From Candidatus Methanophagaceae archaeon (GTDB lineage: Archaea > Halobacteriota > Syntropharchaeia > Alkanophagales > Methanospirareceae), in NCBI GenBank assembly GCA_003194435.1, contig PQXC01000001.1, forward strand, positions 70,991 through 134,990: 64,000 nucleotides of DNA, given 5' to 3'. Shown one piece after another: positions 13,189 through 63,664 of this stretch. A program made the position numbers and the translations under genes. Under the pieces are notes generated by a model. The model did no database searches and was not told the origin of the DNA. It saw only the letters and a program-made list of their open reading frames with translations. The stretch's first letter is position 1; the number at the start of each line of letters is the position of its first letter.

Positions 13189-13207
13189 CTCATCTGATTC
13201 ATCACGG

Positions 13208-15070
13208 TTATCTCGGTTTCCATCTCTTATCACCGGGTTTTCTATATACTGACTTCAATGGCTCCTCGCGGGTTTCCGGATATTTCAATCTCCCGCCTTT
13301 GAACTTGAAATCGGGCGGTTTCCGCTCCGTCTCTATTAAATCTTTCGTCCTGCCCGCTATCCTGGCTTCTATGTCTTCCGCTTCCTTCTCCACTGCGCTC
13401 TTCGCTATATGCAGGTCGTCTATCTTTATCATCCCCGTTGCTGCTTCCGTTGCTGATATAAAAGCCTGTAGCTTCACACTGAGCGGCTCTATTATTCCCA
13501 CCTGGAACATATCCCTTATGCTCTTATCACGACCCGAGATACCAGCGTTCATATTACCACTGAAATGCTCCGCCCTGAGCCTCGTCAGTGTGTCTATCTG
13601 GTCCATGCCACAGTTCTTCGCTATCGCCCTCGGAATCGTCTCCAGCGCATCTGCGAACGCATCTACCACCAATTGCTCCTTACTCGGTATCCCCCGTGCA
13701 AACTTCCTCAGCCGATGGGCTGATTCAACTTCTACTGCTGCTCCGCCTGGTACCACTCTATTATCCTCGAATAATTGCGCAACTGCGTGTAAAGCGCTTT
13801 TTAGCTCCCCCACTATGCTCTCCAGAACCCTGAGTGAGGTACCCCTTATAACAATCGTTGCAGACTCTTTGCGTGGGCAGTTCTCAAAGAATACGTATTT
13901 GTCCCCTCCTATCTCTCGCTGCGACACTCTACCCGCATAGCCAAACTTGTCCGGGCTTAAGTCACTTACATCCTTAACTATCTTGGCACCCGTAGCGCGT
14001 TCAAGCCGCTCAAGATCAGTTAATTTTACACGCTTTATCAGCATTATTCCCGCATCACGGAACTTCGGCAGTGCATCAGCGTCCACACCCCATCGGCAAC
14101 ATATCACGTTTGCACCGCACTTCACTATCGGGTCTATAAGCTCATCAAAGAGTTTCGCTCTTGTGTCATGGAACTCACGGAGATGCGACGGCTTTGAGAT
14201 TTTCACATGGAAATCGAGTGCACCTAATGTCTCTCCTGCTTTACTTCGCTCTCGGGCAGGCATACCGGTGGGTAACTCTTTCCTGCCTTTTATCTTCGGC
14301 TCCGGGTGCTCAATCGGGAAGTCAAGGAGCGCTATCTTAGCATCTCTCACATCGCTCGGTAGAGCATCCAGTACTTCGCGGTCCACAACTACGCCCTCAA
14401 AGAACCGTGTCTCATTTACTTTGCCACCGCTCTTTGCCTCTATTGCAATATCATCCACATCTATATGCCTGTTCTCGCTCTCGCTTTTGCTTTTGCTCAA
14501 TCGCCTGATGCTCTCTACCACCACATCTGCCAGTATATCCTCGTCACAAAACTCACCCTTCTTAAGCGCGGTCTTTGCTACACGGTGCAGGATCTCAGTG
14601 CCAGCCTCGTCTCTTATATCCACCGTGGTTGCCATCTCCTTCAATGTCTCTTTCACAAATCCAAGTGCACGCTCATAGCCGTCCACCACGATATTTTGAT
14701 GCACCCCCGCTTTCCGTAGCTCGTATCCCCTCCTCACCAGCTCCCCTATCAGAATCATCACCGTGGCTATACCATCACCCACCCGTTCGCCCTGCGTCAG
14801 CCCGGCAGTAATCAATATATCAGCGGTTGGATGTGTGTACCTCAGCTCCTTTATCAGGCTGTAAGCATTACTTGATATAAGGTCTGCAGCTTCTACCTTC
14901 GTTGCTCCCTGGGTTATCAATATCTTGGACCCAAAGGGACCGATTACCGGCTTGAACATATCGGAGAAAGCCGCGCAAACCATCATATTCGTCTCCTGAA
15001 TCTCCTCCGGCGGCACTTCCCCTGGCGGTAACTCATCCTTTATCATCTCTATCCTATCACCATTAACCAA
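13208..15070 (-). CDS. Divergent group II chaperonin (thermosome/CCT family) paralog with an extra basic C-terminal tail.
   Basis: 'VIGPFGSKILI' (vs LGPKGMDKMLV). 'GDGIATVMILIGELV' (vs GDGTTTAVVIAGELL). 'VVPGGAAVE' (vs VVPGGGAVE). 620 aa, ending 'KFKGGRLKYPETREEPLKSVYRKPGDKRWKPR' rather than a GGM tail. Confidence 0.7.
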   Translation of the reverse strand: MVNGDRIEMIKDELPPGEVPPEEIQETNMMVCAAFSDMFKPVIGPFGSKILITQGATKVEAADLISSNAYSLIKELRYTHPTADILITAGLTQGERVGDGIATVMILIGELVRRGYELRKAGVHQNIVVDGYERALGFVKETLKEMATTVDIRDEAGTEILHRVAKTALKKGEFCDEDILADVVVESIRRLSKSKSESENRHIDVDDIAIEAKSGGKVNETRFFEGVVVDREVLDALPSDVRDAKIALLDFPIEHPEPKIKGRKELPTGMPARERSKAGETLGALDFHVKISKPSHLREFHDTRAKLFDELIDPIVKCGANVICCRWGVDADALPKFRDAGIMLIKRVKLTDLERLERATGAKIVKDVSDLSPDKFGYAGRVSQREIGGDKYVFFENCPRKESATIVIRGTSLRVLESIVGELKSALHAVAQLFEDNRVVPGGAAVEVESAHRLRKFARGIPSKEQLVVDAFADALETIPRAIAKNCGMDQIDTLTRLRAEHFSGNMNAGISGRDKSIRDMFQVGIIEPLSVKLQAFISATEAATGMIKIDDLHIAKSAVEKEAEDIEARIAGRTKDLIETERKPPDFKFKGGRLKYPETREEPLKSVYRKPGDKRWKPR

Positions 15071-30107: not shown

Positions 30108-32870
30108 TTACCCCTCCAGCCTCACCCAGCTCACACCGTCCGCATCCTCACTCACCCTCAGCACGTACTCCATATAATCCTTCACATCCTCTATATGCGT
30201 AATAAGCAGAATCTGCCTGAACTTCTTTGACAACTCACTCAGTGCTGTTATGATATTCCTCTTTCGAAGCATGTCCTGCGAGCCGAATATCTCATCGAGG
30301 ATGATGAAATTGGTTTGAGTTGCACTCCTCTCCGATACAACTGCGGAAATAGCCAATCGAAGACAGAGATTCGCAAGGTCCTCCTCACCGCCTGAGAACC
30401 TGTTCAGCTCATACGCAGTACCATCCTCACAGATGAAGACTTCATAATTCTCATCCAGCTCGAGCCTGCTGTACTTGCCATCCGTCAGCCGCCTCAGCAT
30501 ATCTGATGCATAATCTGCGAGCAATGGACGGATCATACCTACCATATACACCTTGAAATCGTTCATTATCTTCTCAAGCAGATTTAAATACATTATATCC
30601 TCCTCTTCCTGCTCCTTTTCTTTTATTAGCCGTTCCTGCTCCTCTATATCCGCCTGCACACGCGCTCTCTCACTGCACAGGTTCTCAAATTCGTGCTTCT
30701 TGCCCATGAGCTTTAACTTCACCTCGCTCAGAGCCTCACTCTCGCGTTCATACCTCGATTTCAACTCTACATACGCCATTTTATCAAATGCCAGCCCCTC
30801 TACCTGCTTCTGTAATGCCGTTATCTCATCCACAATCCCGCGTTCCTCATCACGCAACTCCTGAATGCTGGACTTCACCACCTCTATCCTCTTTATCTCG
30901 GCTTTTAACCCTATTATCTCGTGATATACCTGCTCAAGTTCTTTTAATTCCGATATAACAGTATTATATTCATTCTCATTGAACTCAACATCAGCAACAG
31001 ACTTCAAATCGCTCTTTATCTGCTCCAACTCCTTATGCCAGCGTTGCAGCTCACGTTCTTCATGTGCCATCCTCACCTCTAACTCCCTCTTGGCTCTCAC
31101 ACGCTTCTCAAGTTCGTTTATTTTCGCTATTACACCTTTATAACGATTATCATCAAATTCAACCCCTTCCAATGGCTTCAAAGTGGCTAAAAGCTCCTTC
31201 AATTCCTCATGCCAGCTATCCAATTCCCGATTCTCCTGCTCTATCTTTGTATCCAGCTCTCTTCGCATGTTCACACGCTTCTCAAGCCCCTGCAATTGCT
31301 TTGTGAGCGACTCCTCAAGCTTACCCTTTGAAATAAGTTCCTGTTTCTTGCTCTTGTACTCATTGAATACCATAGAGAGCTTTTCCTTACTGCTTCTCAG
31401 CTCTTCATTCAGTTTCTTTATCAAGAACTCATAATGGGTTCCTAATTGCCGCTCGCATAGCGGGCACTCGCCTCCAGGACCCAGACTTTCTATCTGTTCT
31501 ATCTTCTCCCTGTTCGCCTCTATATCGCGCTTAATCTGTATTGCTCTCGTTTTATAACCGCCAATTGCGGAATGCAACCGCTCTTTATCGCGCCTCAGCT
31601 CTTCTATCTTACCCTTCACCGCCTCCAGTTGCGCATCAGCATCCTCAAACATGCGCCTATCTGCCTTTAAACGCTCGATCTTAGCTTCTCTGCTCTTTAT
31701 CTCCCGCATTGCTCGCTCTTTTCGCCTCATCAGCTCTTCTTTCTGGTGATACCGGTCACGTAGCTGCTCCAGCTCGTCCTTGAGACGCATCTGTGCATCG
31801 AATAAATCCTCTACACCCCTGAACTCCGCTATTTTAGCTTCCAGTTCCTTTATTAGTGCTTTTCGCTGTTTTATCTCTTCCACAGTCTTCTCTTGCCGCC
31901 CTGTCAGCTCTATCTTATGCTGGTAGCGATTCCGTAGCTGTTCCAGCTCGGTTTTGCGCGCTTTATACTCGAAATACCGCTTTTCCTCTGCCTGTATAGC
32001 CTGAAGCCGCTTTTGCTTCTCAATCAATGCAGCAAGCTCCTTCTCCTTCTCCTCCCGGCTCTTCCGGATGTTCTCCAGGTAGCTCCTTCGCTCGCCCAGC
32101 ATATTGGTCAGCTCCACGTATCTCTCATATTTCTCAGTTGCGAGTTCCAGCTCATGCTTCGTTGCCAGAACTACACGCTCCTTCTCCTCTTTTTCTGATT
32201 CTATCTCCTTTATAAGCGGTATAATAGACTCTTTATCCTTATCCAGCTCCGCCCTCTTTGTCTGAAGTAATTCTATCTTCTTCCTGCCTTCTTTATCCAC
32301 AATTGCTGCTTTTATACCCTCTATCTTCTTCTCCTTGCCTCTTCTATCCTCCCTTAGCGCCTGTATGCTATTCTCTATCCGTTCAATGCCAAGCATACGC
32401 AACATGAGCTTCTTTCGTTCCGCAGCCTTCATTGTTGATAGCGCATTCAACTCCTTCTGTCGCGCGAAGACGGAAGTGAAGAATGACTGGTAATCCATGC
32501 CTATTTTATGCTCCAGCACTTCCGTCACCTCCTCCGCATTGCTGGTGATGAGTTTTCCATTGATAACAAGCTTCGCTTTTGGCATCAGATTCCTGCCCGC
32601 CATCTCTCTTACCACTTTATAGTAGTCGCCACCCAGCTCAAACTCCAGCTCTACCTGGCATGGCTCATGTGGTGATGCACCTCTGCGTTTTATAAGCTCC
32701 TTAGTTGTTCGTGCAGCATGATGCCCGAATAGAACCCAGCCTATTGCCTCCACCAGTGTCGTCTTACCCACTCCATTCAGTCCAATGATTCCAATCACGC
32801 CATCAGGGAACTCTATACATGCGTTCTTATATTTGCGATAATTTCGGAGTGTAAGCGTCTTCAGCAGCAT
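30108..32870 (-). CDS. Rad50/SbcC-like SMC-family ATPase with a central zinc hook. Orphan: no Mre11/SbcD partner adjacent.
   Basis: Walker A 'GLNGVGKTTLVEAI'. Long coiled coil. 'GGECPLCERQLG' CxxC hook in the mid-coil. Signature 'FSGGE'. Walker B 'FIILDEIFGSQD'. H-loop 'LLITHIED'. 920 aa. Confidence 0.75.
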   Translation of the reverse strand: MLLKTLTLRNYRKYKNACIEFPDGVIGIIGLNGVGKTTLVEAIGWVLFGHHAARTTKELIKRRGASPHEPCQVELEFELGGDYYKVVREMAGRNLMPKAKLVINGKLITSNAEEVTEVLEHKIGMDYQSFFTSVFARQKELNALSTMKAAERKKLMLRMLGIERIENSIQALREDRRGKEKKIEGIKAAIVDKEGRKKIELLQTKRAELDKDKESIIPLIKEIESEKEEKERVVLATKHELELATEKYERYVELTNMLGERRSYLENIRKSREEKEKELAALIEKQKRLQAIQAEEKRYFEYKARKTELEQLRNRYQHKIELTGRQEKTVEEIKQRKALIKELEAKIAEFRGVEDLFDAQMRLKDELEQLRDRYHQKEELMRRKERAMREIKSREAKIERLKADRRMFEDADAQLEAVKGKIEELRRDKERLHSAIGGYKTRAIQIKRDIEANREKIEQIESLGPGGECPLCERQLGTHYEFLIKKLNEELRSSKEKLSMVFNEYKSKKQELISKGKLEESLTKQLQGLEKRVNMRRELDTKIEQENRELDSWHEELKELLATLKPLEGVEFDDNRYKGVIAKINELEKRVRAKRELEVRMAHEERELQRWHKELEQIKSDLKSVADVEFNENEYNTVISELKELEQVYHEIIGLKAEIKRIEVVKSSIQELRDEERGIVDEITALQKQVEGLAFDKMAYVELKSRYERESEALSEVKLKLMGKKHEFENLCSERARVQADIEEQERLIKEKEQEEEDIMYLNLLEKIMNDFKVYMVGMIRPLLADYASDMLRRLTDGKYSRLELDENYEVFICEDGTAYELNRFSGGEEDLANLCLRLAISAVVSERSATQTNFIILDEIFGSQDMLRKRNIITALSELSKKFRQILLITHIEDVKDYMEYVLRVSEDADGVSWVRLEG

Positions 32871-49566: not shown

Positions 49567-50913
49567 TTATGCTTCTTGCTTCTTCTCCTTCACTTCTGAA
49601 ATCGCTTCCCCATCCCGGAATAAGATTCTTAGCATGTCACCGGTCGTGATATCCATCACACTCCTCACCACCTTTTGTTCCTTCAAGCAGATACTATAAC
49701 CCCGTTCGAGGATTGCTCGCGGACTTAAAGCATCCAGTTTACCGGTAAGAGCCTGTAAGCCCTTCTTGTGTAGCTGCACACGATGCATAACCTCTGCAAT
49801 CAGGGTCCTCTTCAGTTCATCCACCATCTGCCGATATTGGTTTATCCTCTCGGTGGGCTTTCTGAACAGGACGTTCTTTTCTATACTCTCAAGTCTCCGC
49901 CTTTGCTGCTCTATCATCTTGTAGATGTTCTGCCGCAGTTGCAGTTCAAGCGTACTCAGATTCTTCTCTATCTGCCGCTTATCAGGCACGACCAGCTCAG
50001 CAGCTTCTGATGGTGTTGCCGCTCGCCGGTCTGCAACGAAATCCGAGATGGTGAAGTCGGTTTCATGCCCCACTGCCGATATTACAGGTATTTCAGATGA
50101 GAATATCGCTCTTGCTACACTCTCCTCGTTAAATGCCCACAGCTCTTCTATTGAACCACCACCTCGTCCCACCACGAGCACATCCACCTTCTTAAGTTCC
50201 CTATTCACACGATTCATCAGCTTGATGGCATTAACAATCTGAGGAGCGGCTTCTTCGCCCTGTACTGCTACCGGTGCCAGCAGGATATGCACATGCGGGA
50301 ATCGCCGCCTCGTGATGTTTATCATATCACGGATGGCTGCACCGGTAGGGGAGGTGATAATGCCTATGGTATGGGGAATAACCGGTATCGGCTTCTTATG
50401 TGCGGCATCGAACATGCCTTCGTCCTTAAGCTTCTTCTTCAACTGCTCAAAAGCTCGATATAGCGCACCTATACCCGACTCCTGCAGCTCTTCTACATAC
50501 AACTGATACCTGCCCCGTTTCTCATACACGCTTATATGCCCCCGGACTATCACACTCATACCATCTTCAAGCGTGAATTTCAGTAATGCATTCCTATCAC
50601 GAAACATCACACACCGCAGCTCTGAATATTCATCCTTGAGTGTGAAATAGACATGCCCGGAAGTGGGTTGACTCACATTGGAGAGCTCTCCCTTTACATA
50701 AATATCCCTTAATAACTCATCACTATCCAATTTCTGCCTGATGTAGCGCGTTATTTCCCATACAGAGTATATACGAGTATGAGTTTTTTCTTTTTCTTCT
50801 CCGTCTCCTACTTCTCCTTCGCCCGGTACATCTTCCTCTATCACCGCAGCAGCAGTATCATCTTCTTTCTTCAGATGCAGGAAGTCCAGTAGTGTTATCT
50901 TTGGCTTTACCAT
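49567..50913 (-). CDS. xseA: Exodeoxyribonuclease VII large subunit.
   Basis: OB-fold N-terminus 'YVKGELSNVSQPTSGHVYFTLKDE'. Catalytic core 'VLVVGRGGGSIEELWAFNEE'. Coiled-coil C-terminus. 448 aa. No xseB-sized ORF adjacent. Confidence 0.8.
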   Translation of the reverse strand: MVKPKITLLDFLHLKKEDDTAAAVIEEDVPGEGEVGDGEEKEKTHTRIYSVWEITRYIRQKLDSDELLRDIYVKGELSNVSQPTSGHVYFTLKDEYSELRCVMFRDRNALLKFTLEDGMSVIVRGHISVYEKRGRYQLYVEELQESGIGALYRAFEQLKKKLKDEGMFDAAHKKPIPVIPHTIGIITSPTGAAIRDMINITRRRFPHVHILLAPVAVQGEEAAPQIVNAIKLMNRVNRELKKVDVLVVGRGGGSIEELWAFNEESVARAIFSSEIPVISAVGHETDFTISDFVADRRAATPSEAAELVVPDKRQIEKNLSTLELQLRQNIYKMIEQQRRRLESIEKNVLFRKPTERINQYRQMVDELKRTLIAEVMHRVQLHKKGLQALTGKLDALSPRAILERGYSICLKEQKVVRSVMDITTGDMLRILFRDGEAISEVKEKKQEA

Positions 50914-51606: not shown

Positions 51607-52671
51607 ATGAAAAGTAAAAGTACTAGTACTGGTCTCGTCTATCATGCCTCTTATTTGAGACATTATACAGGGCGTACTCACCCTGAGAGAGCCGAACGAC
51701 TGCTATCTATAATGAAAAAACTGGATGCGGAGGGTATAACTGGGAGAGTGGAACTGCTATCGCCGGTAAAAGCATCCAGGGAGCAGATAGGATACGTCCA
51801 CCAGGGCGCATATATATCGAAAGTGGAAGTGATGAGTGCTCGTGGTGGGGGTATGCTCGACCCTGATACGCCAATCTGCCCTGATAGCTTTGAGATAGCC
51901 CTACTCGCGGCAGGAGGTGTGCTCAAAGCGGTAGATACAATAATGGAAGAACGCACAATGAAGCATATATTTGCACTGATAAGACCGCCCGGGCATCATG
52001 CTACCTCGAGCAGGGGTATGGGGTTCTGCATATTCAACAATATTGCGATTGCTGCTGAGCATTTAAAGCGTGAATATGGTATTAAGCGCATTTTAATTGC
52101 TGATTGGGATGTACATCATGGTAATGGTACGCAGGAGGCGTTCTTAAATGACCCTTCTGTCCTCTACTTCTCTCTGCATCAGTATCCCTATTATCCCGGC
52201 ACTGGCTGGCTGACTGAAGTGGGTAAAGGAGCAGGAGAAGGCTACACAATAAACGTCCCGCTTCCTGCCGGTACCGATGATGGCGGATACCTTTATGCAT
52301 TGGATAATCTGCTGATGCCAGTAGCACGGGAGTTCAAGCCCGAATTTGTACTCGTGTCTGCTGGTTTCGACCCCCATGTTGACGACCCGCTGGCTTCTAT
52401 GAAGGTAACTTCTCATGGCTTTGGATTGTTCACGGATGTAATAAAGGAGATAGCAGTAGAGAACAGCAATGGCAGGCTCGCAATAACTCTGGAAGGTGGA
52501 TATAATCTGTCAGCAATTGCAGAATCAGCTTCTGCTGTCTTCTATTCCCTGCTCGCCGGAACTGATGATAAGGATAAGCATCGGGAAGCAGTGACACCAG
52601 GAGAAGTAGTGAAGAGAAGAGTAGAAGAGGTGAGAGATGTATTGAGTAGATACTGGAGTATGCGCTCATGA
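51607..52671 (+). CDS. Histone-deacetylase-family amidohydrolase (AcuC / acetylpolyamine amidohydrolase-like).
   Basis: 'RPPGHHA'. 'GFCIFNNIAIAA'. 'ILIADWDVHHGNGTQE'. 'GGYN' near the C-terminus. These are HDAC Zn-site and charge-relay motifs. Confidence 0.75.
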   Translation: MKSKSTSTGLVYHASYLRHYTGRTHPERAERLLSIMKKLDAEGITGRVELLSPVKASREQIGYVHQGAYISKVEVMSARGGGMLDPDTPICPDSFEIALLAAGGVLKAVDTIMEERTMKHIFALIRPPGHHATSSRGMGFCIFNNIAIAAEHLKREYGIKRILIADWDVHHGNGTQEAFLNDPSVLYFSLHQYPYYPGTGWLTEVGKGAGEGYTINVPLPAGTDDGGYLYALDNLLMPVAREFKPEFVLVSAGFDPHVDDPLASMKVTSHGFGLFTDVIKEIAVENSNGRLAITLEGGYNLSAIAESASAVFYSLLAGTDDKDKHREAVTPGEVVKRRVEEVRDVLSRYWSMRS

Positions 52672-52678
52672 ATGTCGT

Positions 52679-53740
52679 GTGATACATATGATAGAGATAG
52701 ACGGTTCAGTAGGAGAGGGGGGAGGGCAGATAGTAAGAACCGCAATCGCTCTTGCTGCTATAACCGGGCAGGAAGTGGAGATAAGGAACATAAGAGCTAA
52801 TAGACCCAATCCTGGTCTTGCAGCACAACATCTACATGCCGTTAAAGCAGTAGAGAGATTGTCAGGCGGTAAGACTGAGGGGCTGCAATTGCATTCCCAG
52901 AAGCTGAAGTTCTCACCTGGCGATTTGAAGTGCATCAATACTGAGCTGGATATAGGTACCGCAGGTAGCATAACATTGTTATTGCAATGTCTTATCCCGG
53001 TTGCATTGTTCGCGGATTGTGAGAGTGTGGTGAGGGTAAAAGGTGGAACAGATGTGAGATGGGCTCCCCCGATTGATTTCTACACAGGTGTATTCCTGAA
53101 AGCTCTGAATGCTATGGGCTGTGATATCCAGATTGATGTGAAGCAGCGGGGTTATTATCCAAGGGGTGGAGGGTTGGTAGAAGTGCGAATATCACCTCTG
53201 GATGGTACGCTAAGAGGGTTTAAACCTGAACCAGAGCAGCAGGGGCCAGAACCAGAGAGCAGAATGGTAGTAAGTGGCATCTCGCATTCCCGCGGTCTGC
53301 CCGCACATGTAACAGAGCGGCAGGCGAGAGCAGCGGAGCAGGTATTGCATGATTACGGCTACAGCGCTGCAATAGAGTTAGAGCGTGATGTGGGCGATAA
53401 AACGCCATCAGGAGCAGCATCAACTGGCAGTGGCATTACCCTATGGCTGGGCTATAAGAGCGGCAGTGCACTTGGTAAGCCAGGAAAGAGAGCGGAACTC
53501 GTGGGTGAAGAAGCAGCTCATGAGATAATAAAAGAACTGAATTCCTCTTCCACCGTTGATATACACCTCGCTGACCAGCTTATACCCTATATTGCTCTTG
53601 CGGATACCGGTTCAGAGCTGAAGGTCAGGGAGATGACGGAACATCTCAGGACGAATATATACGTGACGAAGAGATTCCTGGCTGATATCGAGTTTGAAGT
53701 TATAAAGAGCAGTGATGTGGTGGTAATCAGGAGAGAATAA
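52679..53740 (+). CDS. rtcA: RNA 3'-terminal phosphate cyclase.
   Basis: 'MIEIDGSVGEGGGQIVRTAIALAAITGQ' N-terminus. Adenylation His region 'LADQLIPYIALA'. 353 aa. Confidence 0.85.
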   Translation: MIHMIEIDGSVGEGGGQIVRTAIALAAITGQEVEIRNIRANRPNPGLAAQHLHAVKAVERLSGGKTEGLQLHSQKLKFSPGDLKCINTELDIGTAGSITLLLQCLIPVALFADCESVVRVKGGTDVRWAPPIDFYTGVFLKALNAMGCDIQIDVKQRGYYPRGGGLVEVRISPLDGTLRGFKPEPEQQGPEPESRMVVSGISHSRGLPAHVTERQARAAEQVLHDYGYSAAIELERDVGDKTPSGAASTGSGITLWLGYKSGSALGKPGKRAELVGEEAAHEIIKELNSSSTVDIHLADQLIPYIALADTGSELKVREMTEHLRTNIYVTKRFLADIEFEVIKSSDVVVIRRE

Positions 53741-53835
53741 ACTTATTACAGCCCCTTCCACTAACCACTAACTACCGTTCGGCACATAACAAAATATAAA
53801 AAATATGTGAGGAAACATTATATTTTAATAAACTA

Positions 53836-55806
53836 ATGAGAGCGGTTTGGAGCGGTTCTATAAGCTGGGGACTTGTAAATATACCGATAAAATTATATTC
53901 GGCAGTGGAATCCAGGGGAGCAGATTTCAAGTTGTTGTGTAAGGAGCATAAATCGCCGATACGTTATAAGCGGGTCTGTGAAGCTGGAGGAGAAGAGGTT
54001 GGATGGAACGATATTGTTAATGGATTAGAACTGGAAAAAGGCAATTATTTTATACTCACAAAAGATGAACTGGATAAACTAAAACCAGAAGGAAAGGAGA
54101 ATCTGGAGATATTAGAATTTGTGGATAAAAGAGAATTGGAGCCGATTTACTATGATAAGAGCTATTTCGCAGTGCCAAAGGAAAAGAGCGAGAAGGCGTA
54201 TTTCCTGCTCAAAGAACTGCTGGATGAAATGGGAATCATCGCAATAGGTAAATTTGTGATGCGGAACAAGGAGTATATATGCGCTTTACAGCCTTTTAGG
54301 GAGGGTATGCTTTTATCTACACTCCATTATCACCAGTATGTCAGAGACATCGGCGAAATCGTGATGGGAGAGCGACCCGAGATAGGTGCTGAGGAGAAGG
54401 AGTTGGGCAAGCTGCTCATAGAGAAGCATCTCAAAAAAGAACTTCATCTGGAGAAGTTCAGGGATACATTCATGGAACGATTGAAAGATTTGATAAGGAG
54501 GAAGATGGAAGGTAAAGAGATAGAAATAGGTGAATTGCCGAAGCGAGAAGAGAAAAGCCTCGTGGATGCATTAAAAGCGAGTGTGGAAGGTATTGAAAAA
54601 CCAGCGCCAACAATACCTGTAACAACACCAATAGCGTATCCGGAGGAGCGCGCGAAAGGGGTGGAGCGCATTAGCATTAGCCGAGAATACCTCCCTATGC
54701 TATGCGAAAAGGGGATAGAAAGGGTTCTCGATGAAAAAGGCTATATTTTTGAACCCAAGATGGATGGGACGAGGTGTATAGCAGAGGTGTACGAGGAGGT
54801 GAGGCTGATCAACAGAAGAGGGAGGGATATAAGCAAGAGATACCCCGAGATAGTGAAGGAACTGGGAAGGGTAACACATAACTGTGTTTTAGATGGAGAA
54901 ATCGTGTGTTTTAATGAAGAAGGGGTTCCCGATTTCAATCTATTACAAAAAAGAGAGCAAATTGATTCGGATTTACTGATAGAAGCCAGAGCAAAGGGGA
55001 TACCTGCAACATATGTGGTATTTGACATCCTGGCAAGAGGAGAAGAAGATTTATCAGAGAAGCCGTTGGGTGAGAGGAAGAAGATATTGGATGAAACGGT
55101 GCAAGATGCTGAGCACATCATGAAAATTGATTATGAGGCGGATGGTAGAAAGCTCTGGGACGAGATAAGGAAAAAGGGGATGGAGGGCGTGGTTGCCAAA
55201 AGAGTGGATAGTGCTTATTACCCCGGAATGAGGAAATGGGATTGGCTCAAGCTGAAAAATTTGAAGACAATTGATGTGGTGCTCGTGGGTTATACCACTG
55301 AGAAACGAGAGATAAGCGCTCTGGGAATGGCTCTCTATCAGGATGCTGACCTGGTTTACATAGGCAGTGTGGGAACGGGCTTTAGTGAGAATTTAATAAA
55401 GATGTTGAAGCGCGAGATAAGGGAATTAAAGTTAAAAACAGATAAAGCACCGGTAGTTAACCCGGAGAAAGTTAAGCATAAGGGAATGAAATGGATCAAA
55501 CCGCATCTTGTGGGCGAGATACAGTATCTCGAGGTGACTGGCGGCGGTGAGTTAAGGGCGCCGAGTTTTAAGGGGTTAAGGTGGGATAAGCCCATAGAAG
55601 AATGCAGTTTCGACCAGTTGTGGAAGGGGAGAATAGAAGAGTGCATTGAGATATTTAATCACGAGGCGGCTCAGCCTGTGAGTGTATATGAACATGAACG
55701 ACTGTGTGAGGATTACCTTGTTGAGCAGCCTACGCTGTTAAAAGGCGGTAGTGCTATTCCATATGCCTGGGTTAAGGCAAAACTGGAGGCATATAGGAGG
55801 GGATAG
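53836..55806 (+). CDS. Fusion protein: N-terminal Ku DNA-end-binding domain (~aa 1-260) joined to a C-terminal ATP-dependent DNA ligase (LigD-type ligase domain, ~aa 283-656).
   Basis: Ku: 'AVWSGSISWGLVNIPIKLYSAVE' (bacterial/archaeal Ku N-terminal signature), 'YFAVPKEKSEKAYFLLKELL'. Ligase: motif I 'EPKMDGTRCI' (KxDG). Motif III 'YVVFDIL'. Motif IV 'DGEIV'. Motif V 'EGVVAKR'. Motif VI 'KWDWLKLK'. One uninterrupted 656-aa ORF. Confidence 0.8.
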   Translation: MRAVWSGSISWGLVNIPIKLYSAVESRGADFKLLCKEHKSPIRYKRVCEAGGEEVGWNDIVNGLELEKGNYFILTKDELDKLKPEGKENLEILEFVDKRELEPIYYDKSYFAVPKEKSEKAYFLLKELLDEMGIIAIGKFVMRNKEYICALQPFREGMLLSTLHYHQYVRDIGEIVMGERPEIGAEEKELGKLLIEKHLKKELHLEKFRDTFMERLKDLIRRKMEGKEIEIGELPKREEKSLVDALKASVEGIEKPAPTIPVTTPIAYPEERAKGVERISISREYLPMLCEKGIERVLDEKGYIFEPKMDGTRCIAEVYEEVRLINRRGRDISKRYPEIVKELGRVTHNCVLDGEIVCFNEEGVPDFNLLQKREQIDSDLLIEARAKGIPATYVVFDILARGEEDLSEKPLGERKKILDETVQDAEHIMKIDYEADGRKLWDEIRKKGMEGVVAKRVDSAYYPGMRKWDWLKLKNLKTIDVVLVGYTTEKREISALGMALYQDADLVYIGSVGTGFSENLIKMLKREIRELKLKTDKAPVVNPEKVKHKGMKWIKPHLVGEIQYLEVTGGGELRAPSFKGLRWDKPIEECSFDQLWKGRIEECIEIFNHEAAQPVSVYEHERLCEDYLVEQPTLLKGGSAIPYAWVKAKLEAYRRG

Positions 55807-56094
55807 AGATTGGAAAACCTTATTTAAAGTTAAGTAAATTAACTAAATGAAACATAACCTTTATTCTCAGCAATCTTTTTTGTTTGTATAACTCTTGCCG
55901 TTCAATACGTTCAATAATTTGTTGTCTCTTAAAACCGGTTCTCACTTTCTCACTGAAAGTCTTCTTGCTCTTGCATCTGAGTAGCGCAGTACAGTATTCA
56001 AAGTTTATAGGTCACAAAATTTATGAACTGCTCTCCACCAGAAAGGTATCAGAAAACTTTATTTAGGTATTCAATCCAATTATAAAGAGAAAAA

Positions 56095-58846: not shown

Positions 58847-61800
58847 CTACATGAACTCATCCAGTGCCTTCTGCTTATCAGCAGTAGGGAAGAGCAACTC
58901 AACGTCTCGCTTCAGCAGTTCCAATCGCTGTCTCGTGTATTTACTCAGGTGATACTCATCAGCTATGCGCAGTGATTCCGATAGATATTTCTTTATTCCC
59001 GCAGCGTGCACCGTAGGCAGTAATTTCCCGCCGCATCGGCTGCACCTGCCCGTAAGTGGCACTCTCCGGTATTTCGCATTGCAGCGACTGCACCGCACCC
59101 TCTGAGTGCCGAACGCGCGGAGATTGCCCTTTATATCGCGCAGAAAATGGTTCTTTATCACCGTCTCCGCAACTTCACGTGCATCCACCGCTCTTATAAG
59201 TCTTGCCAGCCTCAATTGTGCATCTACCTTATCCATCATCGTACCCAGCGTCTTGTAGAGCGAGTTCAAAGGACCTGCTGCAATCTCCGTTGTATCATGC
59301 GTGTAGCCGAACCCGTAAACATCGCCCGGGTGGTCTATTCGCGTGGCTGCCGTCTCTACTGCGACCTCTTTTGGATGCTTACCCAACTCGGCGGCGAGAT
59401 AGAAGTCCAGAGGGTATTCCCACATGATAGAGAGGTTATGTGCCTCTTTATCCACCTCCTTCGGGTTTATTACCGGTATGAGAACTAAAGGTGCATCCAT
59501 TCTGCCCCCGATCTTATCGGGCAAGAAAGATAGCGAGAAGTTCAGTAGCGCATCCAGCAGCAGAATTATTGAGTCCTCATCGCCGTCACAGTTGCCGGTC
59601 AGCACAGAGCCATTTGCCAAAAAATTGTGATGCCCTTCTACTTCTATATCGTATAAGAACCCAAATTCCGACTTAACCGGTTCTATCTCCTTTATTTCGT
59701 CAAGAACAGCATCGCCGAACGAAGAGATACGAGGTGCTTTCTCTTTTGCCAATACTGCTCTCAATGCTTCGTTCTTTCTTTTCTCTACGAAACCGATTGC
59801 CTCACCAAATTTTCGCGCATATCGCGAACTTATAAAGAGATAATGAAGGTCAAAGACCGGTAATTCCTCTCCACTTTTACCTTTACCCTTTCGCTCGTAG
59901 AATCGTCTGGCAACACCTCCGGCAGCTTTTGTCTCTCTTTTCAAGCGGCAGAATATACCAAATCGGAGCAACTGCAATCCGATGTCCCGCAGTAGCTTCT
60001 CGCTCACTGAGCAACAGGAGACCACAAGTCTGTTTCTTTCCACAGAGCCATCACCTGAGAAATAGGCACTCAGCAACCACTTCATCTTATCGCGAGGAAT
60101 ATTCCACAGTAACGGTGGAATTCGCTTATCTTTTGCTCCTTTGCCCGTACCCAGAACATCCACAAATAGATGGTATATCAATCGGTTTGATATGACGAGC
60201 ACTCCCTCTCCCTCTTTTATGCTCGGTGAAAAACCAAAAACATCTTTGACGCAGTTCACCATGTCATCTAAGAGCTTCTTTTCCCGCGATGAGATGCTGA
60301 CCTGATAGAATTCCTTTTCAGTGCTTCTTGCATAGCCTTCTGCGAGATAATAGCCAATAAGCCGCATGAAAGGCTCGTCAAGCCTGATCATTCGCGGAAT
60401 TGCCGTATTACCTCTTTTAACACCGAGCTGGCATTCACGCGGGATTGCAGTCCAATCGCGGTGCGACCGCTTGAGTAACGAATGCAAAATAGGTAGCGGG
60501 ATGCTATCACGATAAACATAATTTGAAAATGTCTTTTTCCTGATTCCCATCTGCTCGGCAGCGCGTTTGAGCCCTCCCAGGTCTTTTATTAGCTCTTCTA
60601 CTACTGCTCGCACTCCTCTTACCATCACGTCCCGATAAAGGTCATCAAAGTGCAAAAATTCTTTCAGAAGGTCTATTTCTGCTCTCTCCTCTTCTTTAAG
60701 CTCGAGCTTTTCCGGCACTAATAGCATATCTTTATCATCCAGTTCCAGAACTTTTTTGTACTGGATTTTACCGTTTGCGTTTGCGTTTGTGTTTGCGTTG
60801 GACCATACCGTAGTTCGGTGCTCGGGTGACGCGACGAATTCTCTGCCCGACCTGGTTCTCACACGCACGAGATGTGCCGGTGCAGGTGTTTTAATCACTG
60901 ATTTGATCTCCTTCAGTTCAAACTGCCCATTCTCTGGATTCAATGCATACGTCTTAATTCCTTCAATTGTTCTTCGTGTTGTACCAAAATCATCAACAAC
61001 CTCTTCATGTGCGTTTTCGCCATTACTATTATACAGCGACTCCAGGTCTATACTTTTTAATCCCCCGGCAGAGTCCGTGACCAGAACTTCGGTATTTGGC
61101 GTCAAACAGTTCCTTCGCTTCGCTGCATGGAAGAAAGGATGTGCATAACAGGCAGAGGCACGCGTGAATCCTATTATCCTGCCCAGTATTCCTGCGGAGG
61201 TGTGTGGTGCCAGTCCAAGCACAAACTGCCCGATCAGGTCCTCCTTAGTTCTTACATTGTAATAGCGTGGTATTTGATAGAACTTCTCCAGCAGCTCGTC
61301 CAGGAACTTCGTAACACGGATGAGATAAGGAACGGCATTAGCAGAGATGATGATATCCTGTTGCTTCAACTCCACTATCTGCGTATCGCTTCTCAGCTCC
61401 TCACCGTTTATATCATGCAAATAGCCAAGCTCTCGTGCTCGTTCAACGCTTAATCCTATCTCACGGAGCTTGAAATGCGTTAATGGTAAATTAGTGAAGT
61501 CGTATCTTATCGTGCCATCTTTATAGACAAAGACGTCATGTTTCGCCCTTAATATGCCCTTAGCAAGATGTTCAGGCACTTTGTTGCCCGAGATGAGTCC
61601 CGTTACACATTTAACATCATGCTTCGTCAATTCGTGCTCATCACCGAGCCTCTTTATTGCATCATGATAGAACTGGTAGAGGTCTATACTCATACTCCGC
61701 CTGTTATTGTTACTGCTCCTGCTGTTGCTTCTGCTACTCCCCCCATGGGTCTTGAGATTGGAGGAGCCACATTTATCGCATCTGGAATAGCAAGATAGTA

Positions 61801-63664
61801 ATACGTTCCCGCAGTCCATGCATCTCTTCACTCCCACCTCTACATCTATCACCTTTGACTTCAACGCTTCCTTTAGTGACCTGTTCTTACCGCCTGCCGC
61901 GCCTACCGGGAAGATTGCATGTGGTGCGGGAGTCATCATTCTTTCTCGCGATTTCTCCGGTCTACCCATTCGCATACCGATTCTCGTAGGTGCTTTTGGC
62001 TTATGCTTCAATCGCACGGATTCGTCCTTCTTCAATCCCCTTCCAATGCCCAGACCGCGAAGAAAAGCATCAGGCTCCTCTATTACTATATAGCGGTAGC
62101 GGGCATTTCTGTCTCTGTGGAAGGGAATAAGCAGGTCTTCCAGAATCGGTATCACTCTGCCGTTCTCATCCTCGGGTATGAGCAGTTTACCATCCCGCAA
62201 CGCACCGCTCTTACATACCCAGTCGGATAGGAATTCCCTGTCTTCGCCACTTATATCCTCCCACAGGTATGTATATGCGGGATGCAACGGCAGGTCGTAA
62301 CGTAACGAGAGCGCAATTGCTTCTTCCTGTGTGGGTATCTTCGAGCGCCATTTAGACGCTTCATCCTTGGATTTCAACTCCAATTCCCGCAGCCAGTATT
62401 CGTGTGCATACGCTCCGGGCTTTAATAATTGCCCGGTCTCCAAAAAGTCACCATAATCTATTAGCACCTCGCCCAGGTCAACAATTTCTAATATTTCATC
62501 GGCATCAACATCGTCATGGCTTTCAAGCTTGCGGAGGTCGCCATTCCTCAGTTTCACCACCGGTCCCTCAATGGAATCCACGGGCACAATACATGCAGCT
62601 TTGCCTGGTAGCTCGGGCTTTACCTGCGTGCCGGGGGCGATGAATCCGAGCAGCGACATCGTAGCCGGGTGCATTCCAATAGCGGCGAAGCCTGAGTTCC
62701 TCGCACGTCCATAGCGAAGCCGAAAGGAGCCCTTATTCGCTGGACGCCCAAACACCGGTCTACCAGCAATCAAATCGTCCAGAAACGCTTTCTTCCTGGT
62801 CTCGCGCTTGCTCTTTATCAGTTTATCCAGCCATTCCCAGCCATCAATGCCGAGCTTCTCCACATATCGCTTTAGCTTCGGCGCCTTCATCGCTATACCC
62901 TCCGTGAGTACAAGTACCATACCCCCTCTTATCCTGTTCGTCGCCACCCTCTCAAGGTCTTTATAGGCATCCACCTCCTTATCCTCCGTCGGGTCACCAT
63001 CTATGCATATCGGGCAGTTTCTCACTATCTCCCTTATCTCATCATCCGACGGTGTATATTGCAACCCGCTTATGCGCGCATAGGCTGATACTTCCAGCAC
63101 ATAGCGCCATATCTCCTCATCCCGCGGTGAATACGCTGCGAATCCCATCCGTTTCCTTATATAGTCAGCAGCCAGCACGGAGAGTGCCTGCGCGGTGCCG
63201 CCAGCACTTCTTATCGGACCCGAATAGAATATCTTTATGTATTCTGTGGAGTCATCGTTCCTCCCGACCTCTATACGTGATATCCCATCCAGTGGTGCTG
63301 CGACCACACCTTCCGTGAGAACAGCCACTGAGGTCCTGACCGCTTTCTCAATGACCTCTTGGCGCTTGTAATTCCCGAACTTAGCGGTAGCGAAATCGAG
63401 TGCGATCTTTAATGCCACCTCCTCTCTGCCATAGCCCTCGTGCTCCAGTTCCCTTATGCGCGCACCCACACCTTTTATCCCTATCAATGCCTCCACTCGC
63501 TCTGCAAGGTCACTCGTCACCTTTATTTCGGGCTGCAGAGCAGGATCAAGACCCTTACTCCTCGCTCGCTTCGCTATCTCAAGTTCGTTCGCTAAGCCCT
63601 TCTTCAGTAGCCCATGATACTGGTTCTGGTTCTTGTTCCGGTTCTTCAAATGCTCTGCCATCAT
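58847..63664 (-). CDS. DNA polymerase II (PolD) large subunit DP2, interrupted by an in-frame intein.
   Basis: Exteins match the DP2 pattern ('...GRIIGFTRASACYAHPFFHAAKRRN | CDGDEDSIILLLDALLNFS...', Zn-finger 'CSRCNAKY...CSRCGGKL' at the C-terminal end). 1605 aa total, 1099 aa without the intein. Confidence 0.9.
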   Translation of the reverse strand: MMAEHLKNRNKNQNQYHGLLKKGLANELEIAKRARSKGLDPALQPEIKVTSDLAERVEALIGIKGVGARIRELEHEGYGREEVALKIALDFATAKFGNYKRQEVIEKAVRTSVAVLTEGVVAAPLDGISRIEVGRNDDSTEYIKIFYSGPIRSAGGTAQALSVLAADYIRKRMGFAAYSPRDEEIWRYVLEVSAYARISGLQYTPSDDEIREIVRNCPICIDGDPTEDKEVDAYKDLERVATNRIRGGMVLVLTEGIAMKAPKLKRYVEKLGIDGWEWLDKLIKSKRETRKKAFLDDLIAGRPVFGRPANKGSFRLRYGRARNSGFAAIGMHPATMSLLGFIAPGTQVKPELPGKAACIVPVDSIEGPVVKLRNGDLRKLESHDDVDADEILEIVDLGEVLIDYGDFLETGQLLKPGAYAHEYWLRELELKSKDEASKWRSKIPTQEEAIALSLRYDLPLHPAYTYLWEDISGEDREFLSDWVCKSGALRDGKLLIPEDENGRVIPILEDLLIPFHRDRNARYRYIVIEEPDAFLRGLGIGRGLKKDESVRLKHKPKAPTRIGMRMGRPEKSRERMMTPAPHAIFPVGAAGGKNRSLKEALKSKVIDVEVGVKRCMDCGNVLLSCYSRCDKCGSSNLKTHGGSSRSNSRSSNNNRRSMSIDLYQFYHDAIKRLGDEHELTKHDVKCVTGLISGNKVPEHLAKGILRAKHDVFVYKDGTIRYDFTNLPLTHFKLREIGLSVERARELGYLHDINGEELRSDTQIVELKQQDIIISANAVPYLIRVTKFLDELLEKFYQIPRYYNVRTKEDLIGQFVLGLAPHTSAGILGRIIGFTRASACYAHPFFHAAKRRNCLTPNTEVLVTDSAGGLKSIDLESLYNSNGENAHEEVVDDFGTTRRTIEGIKTYALNPENGQFELKEIKSVIKTPAPAHLVRVRTRSGREFVASPEHRTTVWSNANTNANANGKIQYKKVLELDDKDMLLVPEKLELKEEERAEIDLLKEFLHFDDLYRDVMVRGVRAVVEELIKDLGGLKRAAEQMGIRKKTFSNYVYRDSIPLPILHSLLKRSHRDWTAIPRECQLGVKRGNTAIPRMIRLDEPFMRLIGYYLAEGYARSTEKEFYQVSISSREKKLLDDMVNCVKDVFGFSPSIKEGEGVLVISNRLIYHLFVDVLGTGKGAKDKRIPPLLWNIPRDKMKWLLSAYFSGDGSVERNRLVVSCCSVSEKLLRDIGLQLLRFGIFCRLKRETKAAGGVARRFYERKGKGKSGEELPVFDLHYLFISSRYARKFGEAIGFVEKRKNEALRAVLAKEKAPRISSFGDAVLDEIKEIEPVKSEFGFLYDIEVEGHHNFLANGSVLTGNCDGDEDSIILLLDALLNFSLSFLPDKIGGRMDAPLVLIPVINPKEVDKEAHNLSIMWEYPLDFYLAAELGKHPKEVAVETAATRIDHPGDVYGFGYTHDTTEIAAGPLNSLYKTLGTMMDKVDAQLRLARLIRAVDAREVAETVIKNHFLRDIKGNLRAFGTQRVRCSRCNAKYRRVPLTGRCSRCGGKLLPTVHAAGIKKYLSESLRIADEYHLSKYTRQRLELLKRDVELLFPTADKQKALDEFM
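59591..61108 (-). mobile_element. Intein (~506 aa) with a double-motif LAGLIDADG homing-endonuclease domain inserted in DP2.
   Basis: Begins 'CLTPNTEVLV' (Cys1) immediately after extein 'AAKRRN'. Ends '...GSVLTGN' followed by extein Cys+1 ('CDGDED'). LAGLIDADG blocks 'LIGYYLAEGYA' and 'LLSAYFSGDGSV'. C-terminal splicing block 'YDIEVEGHHNFLANGSVLTGN'. Confidence 0.8.

Follow-up and report, generated by a model that had tools for sequence, protein, structure and literature searches.

A Ku protein and a LigD-type DNA ligase joined in a single predicted polypeptide of ANME-1 archaea

The window analysed here is a stretch of 64,000 nucleotides from a genome assembly of Candidatus Methanophagaceae archaeon (GCA_003194435.1, contig PQXC01000001.1, positions 70,991 to 134,990 of the forward strand). 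It contains a gene in which a Ku protein and a complete LigD-type ATP-dependent DNA ligase, as predicted from sequence, are united in one polypeptide, although to our knowledge no system studied to date has Ku and the repair ligase in one protein. The gene and its segments are listed below in window positions; the domain layout is the same in the family alignment and in an AlphaFold2 model.

53836..55806, + strand: the Ku-ligase fusion gene as a whole, with an ATG start, 656 amino acids (aa), a TAG stop and no internal stops
53836..54360, + strand: Ku core (beta-barrel/ring) domain, residues 1-175, delimited by Pfam Ku and bacterial Ku structures
54361..54588, + strand: Ku C-terminal arm (helical), residues 176-251, ending in SLVDALKASVE, with TIGR02772 matched end to end
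54589..54687, + strand: interdomain linker rich in Pro, Ala and Thr, residues 252-284, from the alignment and AlphaFold2
54688..55260, + strand: ligase nucleotidyltransferase (adenylation) domain with motifs I, III, IIIa, IV and V, residues 285-475, from DNA_ligase_A_M
55261..55608, + strand: ligase OB-fold domain with motif VI LRAPSFKGLRWDK, residues 476-591, from DNA_ligase_A_C at 490-585
55609..55803, + strand: C-terminal tail, a three-helix module, residues 592-656, from conservation and AlphaFold2

A sequence-only reading of this DNA had claimed a Ku signature followed by a full set of ligase motifs in an uninterrupted open reading frame (ORF), and the Pfam and NCBIfam models and the motif positions bear this out. 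Residues 12-174 match Pfam Ku (E 2.7e-40), and residues 2-250 match the Ku_bact model TIGR02772 over positions 1-259 of 259 with 239.4 bits (cut-off 150). Further downstream, DNA_ligase_A_M is matched at 287-474 (E 1.5e-35) and DNA_ligase_A_C at 490-585 (E 3.9e-22), while residues 298-591 match the NHEJ_ligase_lig model TIGR02779 over positions 11-301 of 302 with 262 bits (cut-off 227.75). Taken separately, each half thus exceeds a curated equivalog cut-off. The six ligase motifs are complete in the window protein and unchanged throughout the family alignment: I (KMDGTR, 308), III (LDGEIV, 352), IIIa (YVVFDIL, 393), IV (EGVVAK, 450), V (WLKLK, 470) and, in the OB domain, VI (LRAPSFKGLRWDK, 573). 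The catalytic lysine is assigned as K308 from its position in motif I.

Comparisons with solved structures point in the same direction, with bacterial Ku (8v53, 9i91 and 9vnq, E 1e-41) as the match for the first half and the ligase domain of Mycobacterium tuberculosis LigD (1vs0 and 6nhx, E 1e-35; Foldseek 7e-24 for 1vs0) as the match for the second. The multidomain DNA ligase D models were missed (TIGR02776 with 240 bits against a cut-off of 373, NF004628 with 221 against 895 and NF007210 with 227 against 989), and a Pfam search of the protein gave no match to the primase-polymerase (Prim-Pol) domain PF21686 or the 3'-phosphoesterase domain PF13298. Prokaryotic Ku is expected to be a stand-alone single domain of ~250-320 aa (PMC11936186); here it makes up the first 251 of 656 aa. 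An internal translation start at M288, at the beginning of the ligase half, was considered and rejected: the pair P287-M288 is kept even in LigD proteins with N-terminal domains, and no Shine-Dalgarno-like sequence precedes it.

The fusion recurs well beyond this contig. A protein index search returned seven distinct full-length proteins with both Ku and ligase (629-667 aa, 65-100% identity), drawn from ENA, JGI, NCBI and Logan assemblies, and the 90% cluster of the window protein has 30 members on many contigs. On the DNA, a single stop-free ORF across both halves was confirmed at loci L001, L002, L003/L004, L007, L064 and L068-L071, and in the truncated L005; it is intact in orthologues that have diverged to 65-93% identity (L064, L070, L007, L003, L001, L071 and L002). 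An exhaustive phmmer scan of 1.84 billion representatives clustered at 50% identity gave one full-length fusion cluster (P0007), then fragments, and then single-domain ligases and Ku proteins; no other intact Ku-ligase fusion was present among these representatives.

Two proteins from high-GC bacteria resemble such fusions superficially. P0199 (776 aa), laid out as Ku(1-176), a ligase without motif I, OB and Prim-Pol, might pass for a bacterial fusion of independent origin. This was rejected, since Ku breaks off at residue 176 and the ligase sets in at profile position 74, without motif I, which indicates a deletion or an assembly chimera. P0229 (340 aa), with half a Prim-Pol domain and Ku, was likewise rejected, as essential parts including ligase motif I are missing. 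Both are probably isolated deletions or misassemblies within ku-ligD operons, and they illustrate how naive domain-architecture counts would yield false "Ku fusions."

Selection on the gene was estimated domain by domain as the ratio of nonsynonymous to synonymous substitution rates (dN/dS), using the Nei-Gojobori method on codon alignments. The ratios were 0.06-0.17 for the Ku core, 0.08-0.12 for the Ku C-terminal arm, 0.07-0.18 for the nucleotidyltransferase domain, 0.07-0.17 for the OB domain and 0.03-0.09 for the tail, with the linker (0.3-0.6) above the 0.03-0.18 range of all domains. The fusion gene is under purifying selection, which excludes an artefact or a decaying gene.

One could still imagine that ku and lig are truly separate adjacent genes, merged by an indel in sequencing, assembly or gene calling. 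An ancestral 4-nt ATGA overlap between the two genes (see below) would be fusable by a one-base error, and isolated chimeric ORFs such as P0199 and P0229 do exist in public data. However, more than 10 contigs of independent origin, taken from four data sources and several studies, carry the fusion with linkers of differing sequence and length, and strong purifying selection acts in frame on both halves and the tail. The sequence-only reading had singled out the junction as the place where a sequencing error or a stop might hide; read over this junction, the DNA is clean, with an open frame and neither stop nor frameshift. Its recurrence across many assemblies made independently, combined with purifying selection, rules out an assembly or frameshift error as the source of the fusion; that explanation is effectively refuted already, and we regard its remaining probability as negligible.

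All GenBank hosts of the fusion proteins are metagenome-assembled genomes of Methanophagales/Methanophagaceae, the anaerobic methanotrophic archaea of group 1 (ANME-1). The proteins are named either "Ku protein" (PXF53937.1, RJS75228.1) or "non-homologous end-joining DNA ligase" (MCW3128906.1), so that the fusion has already been deposited, though half-annotated. Hence, of the suspicion that it might be common and annotated in relatives, the first part holds within ANME-1 and the second does not, since the names cover one half only. The sequence-only reading had also been aware of no description of the arrangement. In the searchable literature, which leaves subscription-only papers and the InterPro architecture tables outside its scope, we found no description of a Ku-ligase fusion, and no paper in the literature library searched treats ANME-1 together with non-homologous end joining (NHEJ). 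Two systematic surveys of Ku and NHEJ omit it: a 2025 survey describes prokaryotic Ku as the core domain only, except for an HEH extension in Streptomyces coelicolor (PMC11936186), and in a 2020 survey of NHEJ the words "fused" and "fusion" never occur. The "Ku-LigD fusion protein" mentioned in PMC6648351 was rejected as a precedent, being loose wording for the mycobacterial Ku/LigD pair. The fusion is thus real, conserved and restricted to one clade, with no prior description found, and constitutes an architectural variant of the Ku/LigD system.

The segments between and after the conserved domains are informative about how the protein was assembled. The SLVDALKASVE motif that closes the Ku arm corresponds to the extreme C-terminus of Ku in unfused relatives. 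The linker that follows varies in length and sequence among orthologues, is missing in P0007/L002 and is predicted to be disordered, with a predicted local distance difference test score (pLDDT) below 50 for residues 249-282. The nucleotidyltransferase and OB domains are modelled with a pLDDT of ~90, and the OB domain is the sole basic region of the protein (pI 9.0).

The tail, an extra well-conserved module that the sequence-only reading had overlooked, has three predicted helices (593-610, 617-630 and 643-655), with a pLDDT of ~90 in the full-length model and 82 when modelled alone. It is mildly acidic (pI 5.3) and is the most constrained segment of the protein in both the alignment and the dN/dS ratios. 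It has no match in Pfam, in PDB sequences (best E 1.2) or in PDB structures searched with Foldseek (best E 2.4), and among the 13,863 sequences compared it is confined to the Ku-ligase family. The role of the tail is most likely in binding a partner protein or in docking inside the complex, while DNA binding is unlikely.

A survey of relatives for fused and split forms, which the sequence-only reading had called for, separates ANME-1 from the rest. The 185,579 species-representative genomes scanned yielded 60 loci, and at 55 of the 55 non-ANME loci examined (L008-L062) ku and lig are separate ORFs. Where the ligase gene lies directly 3' of ku on the same strand, the pair often overlaps; such pairs occur in Thermoplasmata, other Euryarchaeota, Woesearchaeota, Bacteroidota, Gemmatimonadota and Devosia. 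In these pairs Ku ends with ...(E/D)ALKAS(L/V/I)(K/E)* and the ligase begins with ...(P)ML(A/C)xxG. The nearest split pair, L072, came from a metagenome scan and is ~55% identical in both halves. Its ku gene ends with EALKASIEK-TGA and overlaps the ligase start as ATGA exactly at the fusion point; its ligase begins with MKYLPMLCKKG and stops with DECTFEQVE* precisely where the ANME-1 tail begins.

The linker-less junction of P0007/L002, ALKASVE-REYQPMLC, approximates a direct concatenation of the end of ku and the start of the ligase in L072. The fusion can therefore be explained by a small indel at the coupled stop/start overlap and a later gain of the linker, unless P0007 has instead lost a linker that was once there. 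Ligases that carry the tail without an upstream Ku were found in L065 (62% identity) and L066 (~50%). A neighbour-joining tree built on the ligase part unites the fusion proteins in one clade and places these two Ku-less, tail-bearing ligases basal to it, from which we tentatively place the gain of the tail first and the fusion second.

If the protein acts in NHEJ, the enzymes that prepare the ends should be sought elsewhere. The sequence-only reading had reported that the window holds no LigD-type polymerase or phosphoesterase and that PolX-PHP lies 40 kb away, and both statements were confirmed: tblastn found no coding sequence for either LigD domain in the window, and PolX-PHP was located at the position given below, along with a further gene of the repair repertoire.

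11464-13233, - strand: PolX-PHP, a family-X DNA polymerase with a PHP domain, 589 aa, ~40 kb from the fusion gene
30108-32870, - strand: SMC/Rad50-like ATPase, 920 aa

Together with XseA and the fusion gene itself, these DNA-repair genes are dispersed over the window rather than clustered.

The lack of such a partner bears on the possibility that the fused enzyme acts chiefly on single-strand lesions, by nick sealing or by processing abasic (AP) sites and 5'-deoxyribose phosphates (5'-dRP) near ends, and not in two-ended joining. Ku of Bacillus subtilis is an AP/5'-dRP lyase and the LigD ligase domain a 5'-dRP lyase (PMC13201618), and a polymerase/phosphoesterase partner for dirty double-strand breaks was found neither in the window nor in the family flanks. 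However, Ku ring proteins load only at a free end, the sequence does not separate a single-strand role from end joining, and the two roles are mutually compatible. We consider it highly improbable that single-strand repair is the chief function.

The surroundings of the fusion gene had suggested a different kind of partnership. In the window the genes follow each other in the order XseA / S26 / HDAC / RtcA / KuLig / Grx / NrdD, with XseA and the S26-like peptidase on the other strand, and the features closest to the fusion gene are as follows.

49567-50913, opposite strand to the fusion gene, upstream: XseA
51607-52671, co-directional with the fusion gene: HDAC-family gene (Hist_deacetyl, 1e-97)
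52679-53740, co-directional with the fusion gene: RtcA (TIGR03399, 382 bits)
53741..53835, + strand: 95-nt intergenic spacer upstream of the fusion gene, read from the sequence
55875..55886, + strand: oligo-T run cttttttgtttg, ~70 nt 3' of the stop, read from the sequence

RtcA is able to adenylylate 5'-phosphate DNA ends. The fusion might be the sealing part of a co-transcribed module of HDAC, RtcA and Ku-ligase, in which RtcA would prepare or adenylylate ends for the ligase to join. The coordinates and spacers on which the sequence-only reading had based its HDAC-RtcA end-repair cluster are correct: the three genes are co-directional, the spacers measure 8 nt and 95 nt, and the longer one has no obvious oligo-T terminator. 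The arrangement is retained at L068 and L069; furthermore, RtcA lies 5 kb away in L002 and RtcB 8 kb away in L064, both on the opposite strand.

The comparison with relatives does not support the cluster. The adjacency is limited to L068 and L069, each at least 99.7% identical to the window and hence evolutionarily uninformative, and it is absent at eight of eight diverged orthologous loci, namely L064 (93%), L070 (93%), L005 (92%), L007 (85%), L003 (81%), L001 (68%), L071 (67%) and L002 (65%). For L070, L005 and L007, HDAC and RtcA were not found in the available flanks. Upstream of the fusion gene lie a purine biosynthesis operon in L002, NAD synthase in L001, a V-ATPase subunit and a hydrolase in L003, where RadC is downstream, and a divergent Metallophos gene in L064, where an MmeI-type restriction-modification gene and an integrase follow. 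The HDAC-family gene in the vicinity of L001 lies on the opposite strand and is a paralogue with 29% identity, and tblastn with the ANME-1 RtcB from L064 found no RtcB in the window.

The spacer itself fits a separate promoter. It is 74% A+T over its last 70 nt and has TATA-like boxes before the fusion ATG, aaaatataaaaaat at ~31-45 nt and ttatatttta at ~10-19 nt, and is probably the gene's own archaeal promoter, to judge from these signals. Upstream regions are mostly AT-rich in orthologues from unrelated contexts as well, and an alignment of these regions revealed no conserved promoter sequence travelling with the gene. The oligo-T run at 55875..55886 is a possible archaeal terminator between the fusion gene and grx-nrdD. 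An AT-rich, TATA-like spacer and a downstream oligo-T run are consistent with an independent transcription unit, without amounting to proof. HDAC and RtcA are chance neighbours in the window species, not conserved partners, and we regard the three-gene module as improbable.

Some long-range synteny with the window nevertheless survives at L001, despite the differing immediate neighbours: XseA (74% identical to that of the window), XseB and MutS lie ~6-10 kb upstream of the fusion gene (L001:1-4118), with XseA at a distance of ~9 kb. A recurrent neighbour of another kind was seen in the more divergent half of the family, where a gene of ~290 aa, located outside the window, directly follows the Ku-ligase gene or the ligase with tail, overlapping it or less than 100 nt away.

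L001:11989-12858, L002:11890-12768, L071:3082-3945 and L065:1855-2700: ~290-aa downstream gene

In L001 and L002 this gene was considered as a hidden LigD polymerase domain and rejected, as it encodes an IrrE/ImmA-like M78 metallopeptidase with an HExxH motif (PF06114, E 7e-8; PADLOC CapP, E 1.3e-9). The copies are 51-67% identical to one another, and no partner repressor was seen at these loci. In bacteria, DNA damage activates the IrrE and CapP proteases, and the M78 peptidase may regulate the repair gene in response to damage.

This changing neighbourhood raises the question of whether the fusion has an accessory function, either in a mobile element, where it would circularise or protect linear element DNA, or in a stress cassette under the IrrE/CapP-like protease. 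The genomic position differs in nearly every lineage, the M78 peptidase is directly downstream in four of the loci (L001, L002, L071 and L065), and some phages encode Ku homologues that recruit a host ligase. In addition, L064 has MmeI/Eco57I-type restriction-modification and phage-integrase genes at most 5 kb after the fusion gene (L064:12955-16893), which suggests that this copy is at the edge of a variable island. However, no relative was found among the 2.9 million viral contigs scanned, and PADLOC gave no defence-model match for the fusion (nor for HDAC or RtcA). The window is ordinary chromosome, with XseA, NrdD, PolD, PGI and HisG, and neither a tRNA nor an integrase is present beside the fusion gene; searches with Rfam (gathering thresholds) and ARAGORN gave no hits in the window, so there is no tRNA-linked island to explain the gene's position. 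The divergence of the orthologues is also compatible with vertical descent within one order. We therefore judge an accessory or mobile function to be unlikely.

Comparison with known systems helps to place the fusion. Bacterial NHEJ, as in M. tuberculosis, B. subtilis and Pseudomonas aeruginosa, uses a Ku homodimer and LigD; both are homologous to the corresponding parts of the ANME-1 protein, and the order of its halves is that of the genes in bacterial ku-ligD operons. The C-terminal region of bacterial Ku that recruits LigD is the exact site at which the ligase is attached in ANME-1. The differences are that Ku and ligase form one polypeptide in ANME-1, that the ligase lacks polymerase and phosphoesterase domains, that a neutral Pro/Ala linker takes the place of the Lys-rich extended Ku C-terminus, and that the three-helix tail is added after the OB domain. 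The nearest relatives of both halves (40-56% identity) are unfused pairs with the gene order ku then lig, in which LigD consists of the ligase alone (~300 aa): the metagenomic L072 and those of Thermoplasmata (L012), Woesearchaeota (L010), Euryarchaeota (L014-L016), Bacteroidota (L011) and Alphaproteobacteria (L008). They differ from ANME-1 in having two ORFs, with an ATGA overlap in L072 or a short gap, and no C-terminal tail.

Among archaea, Methanocella paludicola has an NHEJ system in which four separate proteins, encoded together, supply Ku, Lig, Pol and PE. This archaeal NHEJ is cited within PMC4797286 and PMC7719229. It shares with the predicted ANME-1 system a Ku-dependent end joining built from LigD-type modules, whereas in ANME-1 Ku and Lig are fused and a Pol/PE gene is absent within the 147 kb of flanks examined. 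The resemblance to eukaryotic Ku70/80 and DNA ligase IV-XRCC4 is one of analogy only: an end-loaded ring brings an ATP-dependent ligase, and the model of the ligase half superimposes on the DNA-bound catalytic cores of LigIV and Lig1 with a root-mean-square deviation of 3.6-6 A. Recruitment in eukaryotes is non-covalent, their Ku is a heterodimer and the ligase has an N-terminal DNA-binding domain. Both ligases also carry a non-catalytic C-terminal module, BRCT repeats in LigIV and the three-helix tail in ANME-1, which are unrelated.

We favor the hypothesis, and consider it probable as a whole, that the protein is a single-chain minimal NHEJ enzyme specific to ANME-1, which arose by one in-frame fusion of coupled ku and lig genes. 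The ancestor would have had translationally coupled genes, with a LigD-type ligase devoid of polymerase and phosphoesterase domains and already bearing the acidic three-helix tail. After a single fusion in frame, the stop/start overlap would have been lost and, in most lineages, replaced by a disordered tether of 25-35 residues. The Ku halves of two chains may then form a homodimeric ring that threads onto a broken DNA end, with each protomer bearing its own ligase (nucleotidyltransferase and OB domains) immediately behind the ALKAS motif that closes Ku. LigD is recruited by the minimal C-terminal region of Ku in B. subtilis and M. tuberculosis (PMC13201618, PMC4889933). Attachment of the ligase at this end means that it would be delivered at a fixed 1:1 ratio without a recruitment step, so that the covalent tether would supersede recruitment and place two ligase modules on each ring. 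The ligase, adenylylated on K308, would seal ends with a 5'-phosphate and a 3'-OH, and end processing in the repair of double-strand breaks would fall to unlinked enzymes, for example PolX-PHP from another part of the genome.

Several observations weigh against this hypothesis. The Ku half is modelled with low confidence by AlphaFold2 (as a monomer and from a shallow alignment), so that ring formation by the fused chain is predicted from homology only. From one lineage to the next the gene almost always has different neighbours, which might speak for an accessory or mobile role instead of core chromosome repair. A polymerase or phosphoesterase partner is present neither in the window nor in 147 kb around 14 family loci, and with none linked to it the enzyme alone should join only ligatable ends, leaving processing to unlinked enzymes. 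The neighbour-joining tree is simple and has no support values. Finally, one orthologue, L006, is disrupted: in L006:1-1587 (JAODGL010000143.1, isolate AMOR_1b; also P0008), which is 84-88% identical, ~130 codons of the nucleotidyltransferase domain are lost and an in-frame TAG is present, so that this copy is either a pseudogene or a misassembly.

A bolder version of the single-chain hypothesis holds that the protein is a self-sufficient end joiner encoded by one gene and that the tail is a new adaptor recruiting an unlinked processing enzyme such as PolX-PHP. We find this version doubtful. If it were true, an archaeal pathway of Ku, ligase and PolX would be nearer in composition to eukaryotic NHEJ than to bacterial LigD, and a single 2-kb gene might confer end joining on heterologous hosts.

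The fusion is informative for the mechanism of NHEJ and for annotation, and possibly useful as a compact tool, but the system as such is not of a new kind. The manner in which Ku brings in and positions its ligase is under active study in bacterial NHEJ, and natural tethers that range from almost none (P0007) to ~35 residues provide evidence from evolution about the geometry of the working complex and its 1:1 stoichiometry. The ANME-1 protein contradicts the published generalisation that prokaryotic Ku consists of a single domain, and it adds a predicted capacity for NHEJ to these uncultured methane-oxidising archaea. With both core activities of NHEJ predicted in a single gene of 2 kb, it would also be a compact candidate tool for CRISPR-assisted NHEJ editing of prokaryotes. 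Furthermore, it exposes an annotation gap, as current pipelines name the fusion protein after one half only.

Other features of the window were noted in passing. The large subunit of DNA polymerase D (DP2, 1605 aa), at 58847-63664 on the - strand, is split by an intein with a LAGLIDADG homing endonuclease (Intein_splicing 888-1354, LAGLIDADG_3 1195-1291). Five long ORFs had no Pfam match at E <= 1e-5:

644-2614, - strand: ORF of 656 aa
20407-21879, - strand: ORF of 490 aa
34460-36790, + strand: ORF of 776 aa
36870-38168, + strand: ORF of 432 aa
41839-42774, + strand: ORF of 311 aa

The first of these equals the Ku-ligase protein in length, but the two are unrelated, as judged by tblastn, which gave no match.

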